Positions 919-17,173 of a stretch of DNA of 25,976 nucleotides are shown one piece after another. A program made the translations under genes and the position numbers. The notes below the pieces were generated by a model that saw only the letters and a program-made list of their open reading frames with translations, made no database searches and was not told where the DNA came from. The DNA is from a virus. Taxonomy: Duplodnaviria > Heunggongvirae > Uroviricota > Caudoviricetes. Every line of letters starts with the position of its first letter. Position 1 is the first letter of the stretch. The stretch lies in IMG/VR virus record IMGVR_UViG_2529293141_000017, positions 1 to 25,976 of that record, one strand, 5' to 3'.

Positions 919-1116
919 ACATCGCGCCCCGGGATTGCCGGAAGGAGACAAAAACCGTACAGTATGCGCGGGTGCCTTTGGCTGATGGCCGGAGGGAACA
1001 CCTGAAGGCCGGAAAGACGAAGGCCCCGGACAAACATTCATGTTTAACCCGAGGCCTGACGTTCTTCCTTCAGCAAGAAGAAGGTTAGCGCCTCTCCGTA
1101 AAAGGAGCAAGCGTTT

Positions 1117-1251
1117 ATGTCGCAAAAACCGTTAAAAACCACCGTGATTTGTATCACGGTAGTGCTCATTATCTGGATCACCCACAGTTCACTGTGCGAG
1201 TTCCGGTTCCGGATAGCGGGGCGCGGAGATTGCGGCGTTCTTACAGTGTAA
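1117..1251 (+). CDS. Hok/Gef-family-like small membrane peptide (44 aa), possibly truncated
   Basis: Own translation MSQKPLKTTVICITVVLIIWITHSSLCEFRFRIAGRGDCGVLTV: an N-terminal hydrophobic helix followed by SLCEFRFR, matching the Hok/RelF core (KSLCEIRYR). AAGGAG sits 6 nt upstream of the ATG. The C-terminus diverges from Hok. Confidence 0.3.
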   Translation: MSQKPLKTTVICITVVLIIWITHSSLCEFRFRIAGRGDCGVLTV

Positions 1252-5228: not shown

Positions 5229-6348
5229 CAGCCAGTACGACCTCCCAGCTTTCTACCCAATTAATGGCCATTTTTTGGTCGAGAGAGTGGTCAAAGTCAG
5301 GATCGTCTTCATTGAAGAATTCGCTGACCATCACCATCTTGCCATTTTCCAGTTCAACAACCGACTCCAGCGTCATGCCTTTGTAGTTACGCTCGCGAAC
5401 GTAACCAATCAGCCCTTCAGCGTGGTTGTCGTCGTTAATCTCTTCAACACGTAAGTCTTCCGGGCGCAGCAGAACATGCAGTTTTTGCCCCGGTTCAACG
5501 GCGAAGTTAACGTAGATATTACATTCGCGGCCTTCAACGTTGGCGCGTACGCGCTGCTCGTCTAGACGTTCGATGACAGTGGCGTTAAACATATTGATTT
5601 CGCCAATGAAGCCGGCAACAAACAGGTTTTTCGGCTCTTCGTAGATTTCACGCGGCGTGCCGTCTTGCTCAATGCGACCATCGCGCATCACCACAATCCT
5701 GTCTGACATGGTGAGTGCTTCTTCCTGGTCGTGAGTCACAAAGACGAATGTAATGCCAAGCTTACGCTGTAACGCTTTCAGCTCGTTCTGCATTTGCTTA
5801 CGCAGTTTGTAATCCAGCGCTGAGAGCGACTCATCCAGCAACAACAGACGAGGCTTGTTAACCACCGCGCGAGCAATGGCGACGCGTTGCTGTTGACCAC
5901 CAGAGAGCTGATGCGGTTTGCGTTGAGCGAAGGTTTCCAACTGCACCATCCGCAGGGCTTCCATCACGCGGGGCGTAATTTCAGCAGCGGGGGTTTTTTG
6001 CATGCGCAACCCAAAGGCCACATTTTCGAACACGGTCATGTGGGGGAAAAGTGCGTAGCTTTGGAAAACAGTGTTCACATAGCGGTTTTCCGCCGGAACG
6101 TGGGTGATGTCCTCGTTATCCAGCATGATGCGTCCGGAATCAACAGTTTCCAGACCTGCAATCAGGCGAAGAACGGTTGTTTTACCGCAGCCAGAAGGGC
6201 CAAGCAGCGTGAGGAACTCGCCATTGTTGATAGTCAGATCCAGCTGGGGAATGACCTCTTTACCATCAAAGCATTTGCGAATTCCCGCCAATTGCACCAG
6301 CGGTGAAAGCGAACTCGGTTGTTTATTCAATTTTTTACTCTGTCCCAT
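5212..6348 (-). CDS. potA: Spermidine/putrescine ABC transporter ATP-binding protein PotA
   Basis: 378 aa with Walker [13 protein letters not shown] signature LSGGQQQR and Walker B LLLDE. Confidence 0.96.
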
Positions 6349-9221: not shown

Positions 9222-9242
9222 GTGATGACCGGATTCAAAATT

Positions 9243-10472
9243 ATGAGCAGAGCACTTAACAAACTGAGCGATACACAGCTGAGGAAAATCAACGGCACAC
9301 CCGCCCAAAAAACAGCCTTTCTTAATGACGGTGGAAACCTGAGCGTCAGGCATTCAACCAGTGGCCTTTTAACCTGGTATTTCACTTACAGGGCCGGAAC
9401 GGGAAGGGGGGCACCACCGGAACGCATTAAGCTGGGAAATTATCCTGATCTGAGCCTGAAATCAGCCAGGGAAAAAGCCGCCCAGTGTCGCGCATGGCTG
9501 GCAGAGGGGAAAAATCCACGTCATGAAATGAATTACACCGTACAGGAAGCGTTAAAGCCGGTAACGGTTGGCGATGCGCTCACCTACTGGCTTGAGTCGT
9601 ACGCAAAGGAAAACCGTGTGGATTATGACCCACTGAAAAAGCGGCTAAATAATCACGTAATACAGCACATTGGCCCTATGCCGCTGGATAAATGCGAGCT
9701 ACGGCACTGGCTGACCTGTTTTGATCGGGTGGCAAAGAAAGCCCCTGTTTCCGCCGGGTTCCTGCTACAGACATGCAAGCAGGCGCTTAAGTTCTGCAGG
9801 AAGCGGCGCTATGCAATCAGCAACGTTCTTGATGATATGAGTGTGGCGGACGTTGGGAAAAAACCGGATATAAGTGAGCGTGTCTTAAGTAACAAAGAAC
9901 TTGGCGAATTATTGCAGGCACTGGACAAAAAAATATTTTCCCCTTACTACGTCGCACTAATCCGCCTCCTGATTGTTTTCGGATGCCGGACAGTAGAACT
10001 GAGGTTATCGGAGATCGGCGAGTGGGATTTTACCGAAATGCTCTGGACCGTTCCGAAGGAGCACAGCAAAACGAAGGTAGCCATATTCCGGCCCATACCG
10101 GAAGCGATACTGCCGTTCGTCACGCAGCTGGTGGAGCAGAACAGGCACACGGGCTTATTGCTGGGGGAAGTGAAACAGGAAACCAGCGTATCGCAGTACG
10201 GCAGATTGGTGCACAGGAGGCTTAAACACCCTCACTGGTCACTGCATGACATCCGGCGCACCTTTACAACCATGCTGAACGATTTAGGCGTTGATCCTCA
10301 CGTCGTGGAGCAGCTTACAGGCCACCAGATGCCAGGAATGCAACGCGTGTACAACCATTCCCGCTATATTGATGCGAAACGCAATGCGCTTGATATGTGG
10401 GTGGAGCGGTTGGAGATACTGGCGGGAACACATGAAAACGTAACCACGCTACCAGTAACCAGAATAAAATAA
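9243..10472 (+). CDS. int: Tyrosine integrase (P4-type)
   Basis: N-terminal LSDTQLRKI...NDGGNLSV...WYFTYR arm-binding-like region, and a C-terminal catalytic region with HDIRRTF and a terminal RY...H. Alternative ATG at 9222. Confidence 0.88.
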   Translation: MSRALNKLSDTQLRKINGTPAQKTAFLNDGGNLSVRHSTSGLLTWYFTYRAGTGRGAPPERIKLGNYPDLSLKSAREKAAQCRAWLAEGKNPRHEMNYTVQEALKPVTVGDALTYWLESYAKENRVDYDPLKKRLNNHVIQHIGPMPLDKCELRHWLTCFDRVAKKAPVSAGFLLQTCKQALKFCRKRRYAISNVLDDMSVADVGKKPDISERVLSNKELGELLQALDKKIFSPYYVALIRLLIVFGCRTVELRLSEIGEWDFTEMLWTVPKEHSKTKVAIFRPIPEAILPFVTQLVEQNRHTGLLLGEVKQETSVSQYGRLVHRRLKHPHWSLHDIRRTFTTMLNDLGVDPHVVEQLTGHQMPGMQRVYNHSRYIDAKRNALDMWVERLEILAGTHENVTTLPVTRIK

Positions 10473-10846: not shown

Positions 10847-11035
10847 GTGTTAAGCACTGATCGGTTTATACGTGAAAAAGAATGCGAAAAGCTAACAGGC
10901 CTTAGCCGCTCATGCCGCTACCGCCTGGAAAAGGCCGGACAATTCCCATCACGTCGTAAACTTGGCGGGCGTTCTGTTGGCTGGTCTTTATCTGAGGTTT
11001 TGGCCTGGAAGGATAGCTGCAAGGCAGTTCACTAA
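10847..11035 (+). CDS. alpA: AlpA-family (MerR/Xis-like) transcriptional regulator
   Basis: 62 aa with LTGLSRS..YRL...FP..RKLGGRSVGW, matching the AlpA pattern. GTG start with an AAGGGGG Shine-Dalgarno. Confidence 0.75.
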   Translation: MLSTDRFIREKECEKLTGLSRSCRYRLEKAGQFPSRRKLGGRSVGWSLSEVLAWKDSCKAVH

Positions 11036-11215
11036 AAAGACTGGCGGCACACAGCCACCACCAATCCATTATTGACCGATACCGGGATCTCGGTATCGGG
11101 AATAAACGCCATAATACTGAGGTATAACCATGATGAAATATACGCCCGTACAGGGGCGGGGATTCGTTCGCCCTGGTGAATCTGAAAAGCCATGCTATAG
11201 GGTATTTTCAGGCAT

Positions 11216-11243
11216 AAAAAAAGCGGTCCCGATATGGAACCGC
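11216..11243 (-). terminator. Rho-independent terminator for the minus-strand repressor cassette
   Basis: On the minus strand: GGCGGTTCC atatc GGGACCGC followed by T7. Confidence 0.45.
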
Positions 11244-11311
11244 CTTTCTGAACAATTAACCCGCTGCGCCGTATGTGTCAACAATCATAAGCCCGAACAT
11301 GATAACCGTGA

Positions 11312-11515
11312 TCAGGCTGGTGGGCAATTACCTTGCTTGTTGGGGCCGTATTGTGCTGCCATTTTCATCCGTTCAGAACGTGAATATTTTTTTAGAAACT
11401 CATCAAGGACAAAAGCGCATGGAGCGAATCTTTCTGATTCATGCTCGAGCGCCATATTTTCGTGCTCTCTGTTCGTTTTTTGCGATGGTGTATTGGTTGA
11501 TTCTTTATTGGTCAT
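11312..11515 (-). CDS. Hypothetical small protein (67 aa), second gene of repressor cassette A
   Basis: Paralogue of 12028-12255: shared MTN start and a conserved C-terminal F-x-L-D/E-x-F-x-K-Y-x-R motif. It is followed by a terminator. Confidence 0.45.
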   Translation of the reverse strand: MTNKESTNTPSQKTNREHENMALEHESERFAPCAFVLDEFLKKYSRSERMKMAAQYGPNKQGNCPPA

Positions 11516-11572
11516 TGTGTGTACCTGTAAAGCAATGCGCCGTAGTACCTCACGCCACGGCGCTGATAGTAA

Positions 11573-11752
11573 TTATTCTGATTCTTTGGCCTTGCGGCGC
11601 TGGCGGCGTTTGATCTCGCCTTTTGCTGCCGTAACTAGAAATCCGGCGGTACTTTCGCCAGGTTCTTTAAGTTGCTCAATATCGGTCATTACCTCATGCG
11701 GGATTCTGACCGTTGTCATTTGTGATTTTGCGTTCTTTGCACCTGTTGCCAT
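11573..11752 (-). CDS. Ribbon-helix-helix DNA-binding protein (59 aa), candidate island repressor, copy A
   Basis: Own translation MATGAKNAKSQMTTVRIPHEVMTDIEQLKEPGESTAGFLVTAAKGEIKRRQRRKAKESE, with a beta-strand / helix / helix pattern. AGGAGA Shine-Dalgarno 7 nt upstream. Divergent from a plus-strand promoter and operators. Confidence 0.55.
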   Translation of the reverse strand: MATGAKNAKSQMTTVRIPHEVMTDIEQLKEPGESTAGFLVTAAKGEIKRRQRRKAKESE

Positions 11753-11771
11753 TTCTGGTTCTCCTGATAAT

Positions 11772-11864
11772 CGGTGTATTTCAGTATACGCAAAAAAAAG
11801 ATAAAAAAAGTCTTGCGGTGTATTTCACCTGAATGTAGATTTAAAAATGAAGGTGAAATACACC
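11772..11864. promoter_or_regulatory. Operator/promoter region A: GGTGTATTTCACC in three copies, two forming a perfect 13-bp inverted pair
   Basis: 11817-11829 and 11852-11864 are exact reverse complements; a third direct copy lies at 11772-11783. The region sits between divergent genes. Confidence 0.45.
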
Positions 11865-11938
11865 CAAAACAACAACGCCCCGCAGTGATGGGAACACATA
11901 CGGGGCGTCTAACCAAACCATTAATTGAGGTAACGATT

Positions 11939-12010
11939 ATGGCTATAAAAGAGCATAGCTTACTCTTTATACACACACAAACGCCCCGGAAACGGAATAA
12001 TCCGTTTCAT
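11939..12010 (+). pseudogene. Truncated 5' remnant of an Icd-like gene (paralogue of 12685-12879)
   Basis: MAIKEHSLLFIHTQT... shares the M-x-x-x-H-x-x-x-L-x-HTQT start with 12685, then loses similarity where cassette B begins. Confidence 0.35.
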
Positions 12011-12027
12011 AGTTCGGTTTTGTGCAC

Positions 12028-12255
12028 TCATCCTGGCGGTCGGTTTTTGCCGGATTTAAGCCGCCGTGGGTATTTATCGACAAAATCTTCAAGGGCAAAT
12101 TTTTCTGGTGGCACTAAGCGCGGCGCTGGTGGTGGTATTTTTGTTCTGGTTAGTTCTTCCTCAACTCTGGCGCAGGCTTCTGACTGCCTTTGCCGGATGA
12201 TTTCATCATCTTGCGTTTGCGTGTCTTGTATTGGTGATAGTGTGTTGTTGGTCAT
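12028..12255 (-). CDS. Hypothetical small protein (75 aa), second gene of repressor cassette B
   Basis: Paralogue of 11312-11515, same position in the cassette. Confidence 0.5.
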   Translation of the reverse strand: MTNNTLSPIQDTQTQDDEIIRQRQSEACARVEEELTRTKIPPPAPRLVPPEKFALEDFVDKYPRRLKSGKNRPPG

Positions 12256-12312
12256 GATACTGCCCTGTAAAGCAATGCGCCGTAGTACCTCACACCACGG
12301 CGCTGATAGTGA

Positions 12313-12492
12313 TTATTCTGATTCTTTGGCCTTGCGACGCTGGCGGTATTCAACTTCCCGCTTTAATGCAGCTGTAACAAACTGCCCTGTACTTTCGCCG
12401 GGCATTTTTACCGCCTCAACATTGTTCATAACTTCATGTGGAACCCTTGCCGCAACTGTTTGTGATTTTGCGTTTACTGCTTTTGTCGCCAT
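12313..12492 (-). CDS. Ribbon-helix-helix DNA-binding protein (59 aa), candidate island repressor, copy B
   Basis: MATKAVNAKSQTVAARVPHEVMNNVEAVKMPGESTGQFVTAALKREV.... GAGGGG Shine-Dalgarno upstream. Divergent from the replication operon. Confidence 0.6.
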   Translation of the reverse strand: MATKAVNAKSQTVAARVPHEVMNNVEAVKMPGESTGQFVTAALKREVEYRQRRKAKESE

Positions 12493-12542
12493 GTTGAGCA
12501 CCCCTCATAAAAAACAAATGCAGTATGCAGGAAAAAAAACAA

Positions 12543-12594
12543 GTGTTCAACACTTGACGTGTTTAACACCTCGATTTAAATTGGTGTTCAACAC
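12543..12594. promoter_or_regulatory. Operator/promoter region B: three GTGTT(C/T)AACAC palindromes overlapping a TTGACG-N17-TAAATT promoter
   Basis: Palindromes at 12543, 12559 and 12584 bracket the -35 and -10 of the plus-strand promoter feeding 12685 onward. Confidence 0.5.
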
Positions 12595-12684
12595 CTTATT
12601 TAGGCAAGGTGTAGAAACGACGAAACCCCGCACTGTAGGAGCAGTAACGGGGCTTCTAACCAACAACGTAAACGAGGAGCCGTT

Positions 12685-12879
12685 ATGGTTGCCGTAAATC
12701 ATATACCACACCTTGTACACACACAAACGGCCTTTGTGTGGCGTTTTCTGGCACTGAGTGCCGGAGAATCTCAAATCATCCACGTAACCGCCTGGACGGA
12801 ACGCGAAGCGCGTAACCTTTGCCCGTCCGGTTGTGTTGCTGTATTTGCCGCCCGTATTCGCCAGGGGGTAGGCTTATGA
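12685..12879 (+). CDS. Small protein, possibly Icd-like (host cell division inhibitor family); first gene of the early operon
   Basis: 64 aa with a GAGGAG Shine-Dalgarno. The motif FVWRFLALS...TEREAR...FAARI resembles Icd-like proteins of P4-type elements, from memory only. Confidence 0.5.
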   Translation: MVAVNHIPHLVHTQTAFVWRFLALSAGESQIIHVTAWTEREARNLCPSGCVAVFAARIRQGVGL

Positions 12880-13109
12880 GCCAGGAAATCACACTACAAC
12901 AGGCAGCAGAACGCGCCCACCAAATCGAAGTTATTTGCGCACTGGCAGAGGATTACCCTGGCATGATGACCGACAGCGAATCAGGGGCAATCATCGGCTT
13001 ACTTAAACGCCTTAGCGGTGAGGTCTGCGTATTCCTGAGCGATGAACAGGAAAGAAGAACGCTTATTTCTAACGAAAAAAAATGCGGAGGGGTACACCAT
13101 GTGCAATAA
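12876..13109 (+). CDS. Hypothetical protein (77 aa)
   Basis: ATG overlaps the upstream stop (ATGA); GGGGGT Shine-Dalgarno; translationally coupled. Confidence 0.5.
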   Translation: MSQEITLQQAAERAHQIEVICALAEDYPGMMTDSESGAIIGLLKRLSGEVCVFLSDEQERRTLISNEKKCGGVHHVQ

Positions 13110-13778: not shown

Positions 13779-14078
13779 ATGAAACTTAAATATTCTGGCT
13801 TAACTGCCAGTGGCAACACTCACCCTAAATTTACGCGCGGTGATATTTACCGCGACCAGTACGGCGGTACGGTAATGATTAAGGGCGTGGCGGGACGGTG
13901 CGTAACTTACCGCCGTGAAGGTTACGAATATGATTGCGTGATGCCTGTTTATCAGTTCCGGCGTGATTTTTCTCTGGTACAGACCGCGCCGCATAACGTG
14001 CCCACCAGCAGGGAGAAAGCACGCGCCAATATTCAGAAGATGAAAAACATGATTAACGGATTCAGGGGCAAGAAATGA
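13779..14078 (+). CDS. Hypothetical protein (99 aa), translationally coupled to the helicase gene
   Basis: Stop overlaps the helicase ATG (ATGA). Confidence 0.55.
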   Translation: MKLKYSGLTASGNTHPKFTRGDIYRDQYGGTVMIKGVAGRCVTYRREGYEYDCVMPVYQFRRDFSLVQTAPHNVPTSREKARANIQKMKNMINGFRGKK

Positions 14079-16658: not shown

Positions 16659-16907
16659 ATGGTACATGACCGCATAGCGGAGGAACTCGAGGCAAAAGGC
16701 TTTTACCGGAGGGCGTCGGCGCGATGGGGTGAAGTCATGCAACTGGTGGAGACAGACAAGGAACGGCATCAGGTTACGATGCGACGGCTGGAATGTTCCA
16801 GGAAGGCACAGAGGCCACCGGAGCCGCCAACGGAGAACTACGCAGACCTGAGAAATGCAGTAAATCGCACTTACGCAGACATGGGGCTGAGCAAATTAGC
16901 AGAGTAG
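16659..16907 (+). CDS. PerC-family-like transcriptional regulator (82 aa)
   Basis: MVHDRIAEELEAKGFYRRASARWGEVM resembles the PerC/Pch N-terminal motif; GAGGGGG Shine-Dalgarno. Confidence 0.5.
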   Translation: MVHDRIAEELEAKGFYRRASARWGEVMQLVETDKERHQVTMRRLECSRKAQRPPEPPTENYADLRNAVNRTYADMGLSKLAE

Positions 16908-17173
16908 GAATATCAGAACCACACCATACAGCCGGAGCAATCCGGCTTTTTGTTATTTTTTGTAAATTATTTGTTCGTGGTTGTTCCACGTTGTTCACTG
17001 AGCGGATCGGCATATTTTACCCGAACTGAATCATGATTATTCTCGCCCGTGGTGCCAGGACGCTGGGGCCACTTTCCCGCCTGTTAATGTGCTCGCCAAT
17101 ATTCATTACCAGGCGGGAAAACGATCGGTGCGATTGCTGATTTCCTTATGAAAAACGGTTGAGTGTTTGCCGC

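Follow-up and report, generated by a model that had tools for sequence, protein, structure and literature searches.

A leader hairpin of an E. coli phage satellite as the probable terminator of an unannotated cis-antisense sRNA

A GC-rich hairpin in the control region of an E. coli phage satellite is most probably part of an unannotated antisense sRNA gene with an intrinsic terminator, rather than a site of antitermination or processing on the plus strand, because the G.U wobbles, the folding, the U-tract and the CLASH reads are all on the minus strand. It is probable that the hairpin is the Rho-independent terminator of a minus-strand cis-antisense sRNA of about 77-80 nt, and that the conserved flank TCTAACCAA complements the first stem of this RNA. 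That the hairpin terminates a minus-strand sRNA can be stated with still more confidence, and the chances that this sRNA represses the early operon are about even. The structure, its strand and its covariation are direct observations, and minus-strand RNA with matching ends has been recovered in vivo from a homologous island; we infer the activity of the antisense promoter in the strain of the window, and the regulatory effect; the window is the whole stretch of 25,976 nt analyzed here.

The predicted RNA is a new phage/satellite cis-antisense sRNA and a positional counterpart of the C4/P4-CI RNAs. A search of the literature on cf-PICIs, Icd-like proteins, antisense RNAs of PICIs and CP-933C/ECs157x yielded no description of it, it is missing from Rfam and unannotated in all RefSeq records examined, and the cf-PICI paper mentions neither a repressor nor a promoter. 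The silencing and release of early operons in Gram-negative PICIs and cf-PICIs have been known just as AlpA plus an uncharacterised divergent regulator pair. A conserved and expressed antisense RNA at the early-operon leader is a concrete candidate for a regulator, which is testable by mutation. In addition, a "leader hairpin" may be a terminator that has been read from the wrong strand.

The island and the two copies of the hairpin

The E. coli phage satellite in the window belongs to the capsid-forming PICIs (cf-PICIs), and a 99%-identical island is inserted in tqsA in strain '10'. The integrase and AlpA genes are followed by the regulatory region (Table 1), which consists of two diverged tandem modules, A and B. 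In each module, a pair of small genes on the minus strand, of which one belongs to the YlcI/YnfO family, is accompanied by a divergent promoter region that has operators of its own and precedes the hairpin. The two modules (11130-11983 versus 12000-12879) are about 80% identical and differ in their operators, which are GGTGTATTTCACC repeats in module A and three copies of GTGTTNAACAC in module B. Judged from its sequence, the divergent control region seems to possess a leftward promoter of its own (TTGAAC-17-CATACT). At least a partial match to the 111-nt element region (12600-12710) is present in 1255 of 5426 complete E. coli genomes, O157:H7 included, with a coverage of at least 80% in 148, and a match that covers at least 80% of the 2-kb two-module region is present in just 13 of the 5426 genomes. 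Long plus-strand ORFs extend across the regulatory region (11774-12697 in the window, 11732-12475 in the locus L167, corresponding to Sakai ECs_1576, and 5267-6010 in the locus L165), and some of them have been annotated as 'hypothetical protein'. They are antisense to the real small minus-strand regulator genes and are probably spurious.

A long plus-strand early operon (12 kb) begins with the Icd-like gene, which is followed by genes for a DUF4222/RgdR-type protein, a RepA helicase, SSB, PerC, capsid, protease, portal, HNH and terminase. The DUF4222 protein (13779-14078, plus strand) has the operon position of RgdR (ECs1581), which controls motility as well as LEE type III secretion in O157:H7 (PMC3378721), and the PerC-type regulator (16793-17029, plus strand) has that of pchE; therefore, the island carries host-directed regulators. 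The O157:H7 prophage Sp7/CP-933C has been described to modulate LEE expression (PMC3378721). Codons 12-21 of the Icd-like gene (HTQTAFVWRF) contain a terminator-like plus-strand hairpin, CACACAAACGGCCTTTGTGTG followed by GCGTTTTCTG (12720-12740, tail to 12750), which overlaps the putative antisense -35 box, is kept in most variants and might serve as an attenuator coupled to translation. In the chromosomal flank, outside of the island, a match to the sok antitoxin RNA (970-1128, plus strand; Rfam RF01794, 62.9 bits, gathering score 59) indicates a type I toxin-antitoxin locus of the hok/sok type.

The original prediction, made from the sequence of the window, was that the same stem and 3' flank recur with variable loops about 30-40 nt upstream of plus-strand start codons, in the leaders of two early operons. 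The arms and TCTAACCAA were located at both sites, the loops of copies A and B indeed differ, and the end of the hairpin is 31 nt (copy A, ATG 11939) and 32 nt (copy B, ATG 12685) away from the start codon. The idea of two early-operon leaders holds for copy B, which precedes an intact Icd-like gene, but not for copy A, which precedes a remnant of 15 codons. Two exact occurrences of GGGNNTCTAACCAA in the window compare to 0.10 expected. A repeat search of the window revealed a 26-nt repeat (81% identity, spacing 747 nt) within the two diverged modules, whose 125-nt repeat is 82% identical. Both hairpins fold; the plus-strand folding energies of the hairpins are -16.0 kcal/mol (copy A) and -13.5 kcal/mol (copy B). 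At the base of the stem, the two copies differ by one compensatory change (C-G versus A-U) and by one wobble that exists on the minus strand only (G-C versus G.U).

Table 1. Features of the island and of its regulatory region in the window, including the predicted antisense sRNAs.
Feature	Position	Strand	Remarks
Integrase gene	9222-10472		island
AlpA gene	10847-11035		island; regulatory region comes next
Module A	about 11130-11940		
Predicted antisense sRNA, copy A	11866-11944	-	about 79 nt; intact beside truncated target gene; fold z = -5.1
Stem-loop 2/terminator hairpin, copy A	11874-11909 (core 11876-11907)	-	tail UUGUUGUUUU at 11866-11875
Stem arms, copy A	11876-11882 and 11901-11907	plus-strand reading	CGCCCCG and CGGGGCG; then TCTAACCAA at 11908-11916
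Stem-loop 1, copy A	11911-11944	-	AGCCAUAAUCGUUA CCUCAAU UAAUGGUUUGGUU
Icd-like remnant	11939-11983	+	15 codons (MAIKEHSLLFIHTQT); homology stops just past the -35 box of the copy A antisense promoter
Putative antisense promoter, copy A	11952-11957 (-10) and 11975-11980 (-35)	-	TATGCT and TTGTGT; 17-nt spacer; direct sequence reading
Module B	about 12000-12690		
Operators GTGTTNAACAC	12543-12553, 12559-12569 and 12584-12594		three; flank and overlap the early promoter
Early promoter	12554-12582	+	TTGACG-17-TAAATT; +1 near 12589; called by simple promoter scan
U-rich tail, copy B	12613-12625	-	UUUCGUCGUUUCU; direct sequence reading
Predicted antisense sRNA, copy B	12614-12690	-	about 77 nt; 5' end at ATG+5 of the Icd-like gene, 3' end in the U-rich tract
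Stem-loop 2 (terminator stem), copy B	12622-12656	-	GAAGCCCCG...CGGGGUUUC; the originally predicted hairpin read on the minus strand
Stem arms, copy B	12626-12630 and 12648-12652	plus-strand reading	CCCCG and CGGGG; then TCTAACCAA at 12655-12663
Stem-loop 1, copy B	12658-12690	-	5' arm complementary to the start codon region
Shine-Dalgarno sequence of the Icd-like gene	12674-12679	+	GAGGAG
Icd-like gene	12685-12879	+	64 aa; NCBIfam NF033153, 65.5 bits; RefSeq annotation of the 99%-identical island
Putative antisense -10 box, copy B	12698-12703	-	TATGAT; inside Icd-like codons 5-7 (AAT CAT ATA)
Putative antisense -35 box, copy B	12721-12726	-	TTGTGT; 17-nt spacer; 3/6 consensus match

Strand and conservation of the structure

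The Icd-like protein was used as an unbiased anchor for the retrieval of 160 related loci from viral and metagenome contigs and of two from genomes. The 122 unique 5' regions of Icd-like genes comprise 79 with the GC hairpin and (G/T)T(C/A)TAACCA and 43 of the C4 type. The hairpin element is present in 79 of the 79 non-C4 leaders, far more than expected by chance. The remaining 43 contain a C4 antisense RNA according to Rfam (RF01695, 70-78 bits), often with IsrK (RF01394) ahead of it. A scan of genome contigs with a single Icd-like protein gave matches in Shigella flexneri and E. albertii alone. Hairpin types and RBS types have been shuffled independently, and the element marks mosaic boundaries between the variable modules and the conserved operon. 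A complementarity between loop and RBS as in C4 RNAs was rejected, because hairpin and RBS types have recombined independently. Many sister islands carry both RNA types (e.g., L094 680-767, L035 1846-1933 and L125 1061-1434). In islands of this kind, the hairpin-type unit is found at the first, sometimes short, icd-like ORF, and IsrK and/or C4 are found before the second Icd-like gene. Proteins annotated as 'ash family protein' (PF10554), as seen for L125 (1347-1434, icd ATG at 1501) and the protein P0049, are Icd-like proteins with an N-terminal extension of about 45 residues, which reads through the C4 antisense RNA gene; this extension looks like an artefact of annotation, and so perhaps does the whole Pfam family.

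The hairpin occurs in 26 distinct variants with 15 stem positions. Pairing was found for 94.5% of the stem cells, which was equaled by 0 of 500 shuffles, and slid registers reached 36-54%. Double compensatory changes (C-G<->A-U, C-G<->G-C, G-C<->C-G and A-U<->G-C) are present at four stem positions and, therefore, the similarity of the hairpins is not mere DNA duplication. The view that the element is a conserved structured RNA has thus gained support from the related islands, and the simple explanation of a duplication without compensatory changes fails.

In the gap-corrected alignment, 299 stem cells are Watson-Crick pairs, 52 are G.U pairs on the minus strand, equivalent to A.C on the plus strand, and 0 are G.U pairs on the plus strand only (for this count a gap that MAFFT had misplaced in one hairpin group was moved by hand, and the value of 94.5% stems from the uncorrected alignment). 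The 52 wobbles are spread over seven stem positions. All of them are G.U on the minus strand and none on the plus strand, which places the selected structure on the former.

When each strand is compared with dinucleotide shuffles of itself, the region from the hairpin to the first codons folds better on the minus strand than on the plus strand in all 61 unique variants (mean z of -4.7 and -2.1, respectively); these variants are related and mosaic and hence not independent. A two-hairpin architecture on the minus strand is shared by five unrelated RBS sequence types and by the remnant of module A, and for copy B the z of this fold is -4.7. Stem-loop 1 is more stable on the minus strand than on the plus strand in 24 of 24 unique sequences, and across the types it has a 5' arm that complements the region of the start codon, an anti-Shine-Dalgarno loop and a 3' arm that ends with UGGUUA, complementing TAACCA. 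In copy B, the loop contains the anti-Shine-Dalgarno sequence CUCCUC, and the 3' arm UUGGUU complements the conserved AACCAA; TCTAACCAA is the complement of the 3' arm of this first stem-loop of the antisense RNA. The predicted sRNA of copy B spans the Shine-Dalgarno sequence and the ATG of the Icd-like gene and is thus, by geometry, complementary to the RBS and start codon.

In all 26 variants, the stem of the hairpin comprises 10-15 bp on the minus strand and is followed by a U-rich tail, UUUGCUUUUU, GUUGUUUUUU or UUUCGUCGUUUC, and no U-tract follows the hairpin on the plus strand in the variants examined. A GC-rich stem-loop that is directly followed by a U-rich tract, i.e., the arrangement of an intrinsic terminator, is therefore found on the minus strand. 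A simple consensus scan for promoters and terminators confirmed the early promoter and called neither the antisense promoter nor the hairpins, which were missed owing to limits on the loop and the U count. The covariance model R1, built for the antisense unit, matches the window over its full length at just two sites, 11864-11948 (90.3 bits) and 12612-12694 (81.2 bits), on the minus strand in both cases. It has 52 matches in 60 related loci, every one of them on the strand opposite to the icd-like gene.

The putative promoter of the antisense RNA includes a -10 box, TATGAT or TATGCT, which is present in 78 of 78 hairpin-type leaders (and in one more with a mutated hairpin) versus 0 of 43 C4-type leaders, a correlation that lacks phylogenetic independence. 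T1, A2 and T6 of this box are invariant while the encoded residues vary (N/Q/E-H-I/T/S), and its conservation could in part result from protein constraint or shared ancestry. The -35 box TTGTGT is located 17 nt upstream of the -10 box in most types, and one type has an extended -10 box, TGGTATGAT, instead. The latter is found in the icd-like genes of 'type e' (L125, L151, L156 and similar), which have an extra GC hairpin, CCCGCAAGGGCGGG, in codons 8-12. The remnant of module A has retained exactly the stretch from the terminator to the -35 box.

An antisense transcript in vivo, its possible action, and alternatives

The homologous island of O157:H7 Sakai is the prophage Sp7 (CP-933C, OI-51, EcCIEDL933 cf-PICI), and the respective gene is ECs_1577. 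RNase E-CLASH of Sakai yielded the hybrid 158815-2_16, 'asECs1576 1597315-1597288 / asECs1577 1597367-1597312', which is listed in Table EV2 with 196 unique hybrids from 2 replicates, -26.8 kcal/mol and Hfq-CRAC sites under both halves (PMC5286369). The two halves of the read, AATGACACTTGCGGGGCT and AGAAGCCCTGCGAGTGGT, map to the minus strand only and correspond to both arms of the hairpin in end-to-end fusion. After conversion of old to new coordinates (+138, calibrated on three single-read hybrids in icd and phoP) the cluster extends over 80 nt, from 1597426 to 1597505 of NC_002695.2. Its 5' limit is ATG+5, an A that is located 8 nt downstream of TATGAT, and its 3' limit, 1597426, is the end of a U6 run after the hairpin. 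These limits of reads from a sister island, which are not mapped ends, coincide with both predicted ends of the RNA, and the ends of the predicted copy B sRNA were placed by analogy with this cluster. The evidence from living cells consists of a single row in a supplementary table, on a homologous island with another hairpin variant, and it reveals a discrete small antisense-strand transcript in vivo specifically for the Sakai homolog. The catalogue of Hfq-CRAC sRNAs for Sakai contains no peak within Sp7, and EcOnc61 (SpLE3) from the EcOnc catalogue turned out to belong to an unrelated island.

The wobbles (52 versus 0), the folding of 61 of 61 variants, the U-tract and the CLASH reads, which are all on the minus strand, contradict that part of the original prediction which had suggested an antitermination or processing site on the plus strand. 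Its further suggestion of an sRNA target came near: the plus-strand leader is the perfectly complementary target of a cis-antisense RNA, but the strand and the role of the hairpin had been missed.

We propose that this RNA acts in the following way. A promoter concealed within the initial codons of the Icd-like gene, with its -10 box TATGAT/TATGCT in codons 5-7 and the weak -35 box TTGTGT in the HTQT codons, would initiate antisense transcription about 5 nt inside the gene, and RNA polymerase would pass the start codon and then the Shine-Dalgarno sequence. The RNA would fold as stem-loop 1, with the anti-Shine-Dalgarno sequence in its loop, and transcription would stop at stem-loop 2 and the U-tract, about 25 nt short of the early +1 and the operators. 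The RNA would be perfectly complementary to the 5' UTR, the Shine-Dalgarno sequence and the start codon of the early mRNA, so that, most likely, ribosome loading would be blocked and/or the duplex would be cleaved by an RNase. Together with interference between the convergent promoters, with the early +1 near 12589 and the antisense +1 near 12690 (about 100 bp apart), this effect may keep the early (replication/packaging) operon silent. At the same time, the terminator would prevent the antisense polymerase from entering the divergent repressor/early promoter region. It might also be speculated that the hairpin at 12720-12740 couples lost translation to lost downstream transcription, by analogy with P1 immI.

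A wider idea, which we put forward tentatively and consider doubtful, is that the RNA might be the immunity switch of a large group of E. coli PICI/cf-PICI satellites, as a strand-swapped replacement of C4/P4-CI. Blocked translation of the Icd-like gene would then unmask the hairpin at 12720-12740 and shut off the operon, the types of stem-loop 1 would represent immunity specificities, and orphan copies like copy A would act in trans against incoming islands of another type.

Several alternatives to the antisense sRNA have to be weighed. The hairpin could be solely an insulating terminator, which stops stray minus-strand transcription before it reaches the divergent promoter and the operators, with the RNA as a by-product without a regulatory role. 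We regard this as unlikely, even though the terminator is only about 25 nt away from the early +1 and the operators, the -35 box is weak, and the RNA is missing from the Hfq-CRAC sRNA list. The structure of stem-loop 1 has been kept in five sequence types, with minus-strand wobbles, the -10 box is invariant at key positions and strictly co-occurs with the hairpin, and the unit from promoter to terminator has been retained as a whole beside a truncated gene. Furthermore, the 196 CLASH hybrids overlap Hfq sites, and relatives carry C4-type regulators at the same place.

Somewhat lower still is the probability that it is the early mRNA in which the hairpin and UCUAACCAA have their function, as a boxB/boxA-like antitermination element, a processing site, a stabiliser or a protein-binding site. 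The 52 A.C mismatches without any compensating plus-strand G.U, and plus-strand z values that average just -2.1 and are worse than those of the minus strand in 61 of 61 variants, speak against such a leader element, as do the independent recombination of hairpin types and RBS types, the missing Rfam match and the origin of the in vivo reads from the minus strand. What it has in its favor is the position within the 5' UTR, about 40 nt past the predicted +1 of the early promoter, a plus-strand hairpin that still folds with -13 to -16 kcal/mol and might have a role of its own, the pairing of AACCA with the start codon region UGGUU, which is of the Watson-Crick type on both strands, and a resemblance of GCUUCUAACCAA to the rrn boxA GCUCUUUAACAA at 8 of 12 positions. 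A nut/rrn boxA/boxB antitermination site was rejected, because pairing on the sense strand is degraded (52 A.C and no sense-only wobble). The search of Rfam with the whole window at the gathering threshold, and with 11600-12900 at E<=10, gave chance matches only (InvR with 17.7 bits, and a miRNA) and neither C4, IsrK nor another family on the element. A phage database search with the element region gave no match. A resemblance of UGGUUAGA to tRNA D-arms was dropped, and a scan for tRNA and tmRNA found none.

About equally improbable is a type I toxin-antitoxin system, in which the Icd-like protein would be a toxin that inhibits cell division and the antisense RNA its antitoxin, for maintenance of the island rather than for control of the early operon. 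The target is a 64-aa member of the NF033153 family 'host cell division inhibitor Icd-like', the antisense RNA spans its RBS, and the sok RNA elsewhere in the window indicates that such systems exist in the genome. However, the Icd-like gene is no stand-alone toxin gene but heads a long operon, which is atypical of such systems, and relatives control the same gene by immunity RNAs of the C4/CI type, as P1 does in immI. A DNA-level inverted repeat, i.e., a protein-binding palindrome, a cruciform or a recombination site, might be suspected at the mosaic junction between highly variable regulatory modules and a conserved operon, but is highly improbable, since arm transitions that result in G.U on one strand only are an RNA signature and a DNA palindrome needs Watson-Crick symmetry, the loops vary freely in length and sequence, and the true operators are other repeats.

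Comparison with known antisense RNAs

In function and geometry, the closest analog of the predicted antisense RNA would be the sar RNA of the P22 immI region. This cis-antisense RNA of 68-69 nt is transcribed from a promoter convergent with that of the ant operon, is complementary to the ant RBS, ends at an intrinsic terminator and represses translation. Both RNAs are alike in size, in convergent promoters about 100 bp apart, in the target region and in the terminator. The predicted RNA has no Rfam match. Unlike sar, the predicted RNA has its promoter inside the first codons of its own target, its host is a cf-PICI, and its target is an Icd-like gene.

The OOP RNA of phage lambda is an antisense transcript of about 77 nt with its own promoter and an intrinsic terminator, which overlaps a regulatory gene. 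It overlaps the 3' end of cII and acts via RNase III, whereas the predicted RNA overlaps the 5' UTR and the start codon of its target. Type I antitoxins (Sok, Sib, IstR) are small antisense RNAs that regulate the translation of a small and potentially toxic protein, as may the predicted RNA, and the sokC rows of the RNase E-CLASH data contain intramolecular hybrids similar to those of the predicted RNA. In contrast to the targets of these antitoxins, the Icd-like gene heads a 12-kb operon and does not encode a hydrophobic membrane peptide, and the predicted RNA is without an Rfam match.

The C4 RNAs (RF01695; P1/P7 c4, P4 CI), together with IsrK (RF01394), occupy the same site as the predicted RNA, the leader of Icd-like genes, in sister islands. 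The c4 RNA of P1 controls icd/ant by masking the icd RBS, and the same role as an immunity RNA ahead of icd may be assumed for the predicted RNA. However, the C4 RNA shares its coding strand with icd, arises by processing of the leader and uses short pairings between loop and target, whereas the predicted RNA is encoded on the opposite strand and is fully complementary. The C4 model (gathering score 45 bits) has no match in the window, nor at E<=10 in 11600-12900, and reaches 70-78 bits at the sister loci. Since, in addition, icd is encoded on the strand opposite to that of the selected structure and of the in vivo reads, membership in the C4 family was rejected. Islands of this group thus swap between two RNA solutions at one control point, with the C4 RNA encoded on the strand of icd and the antisense RNA on the other.
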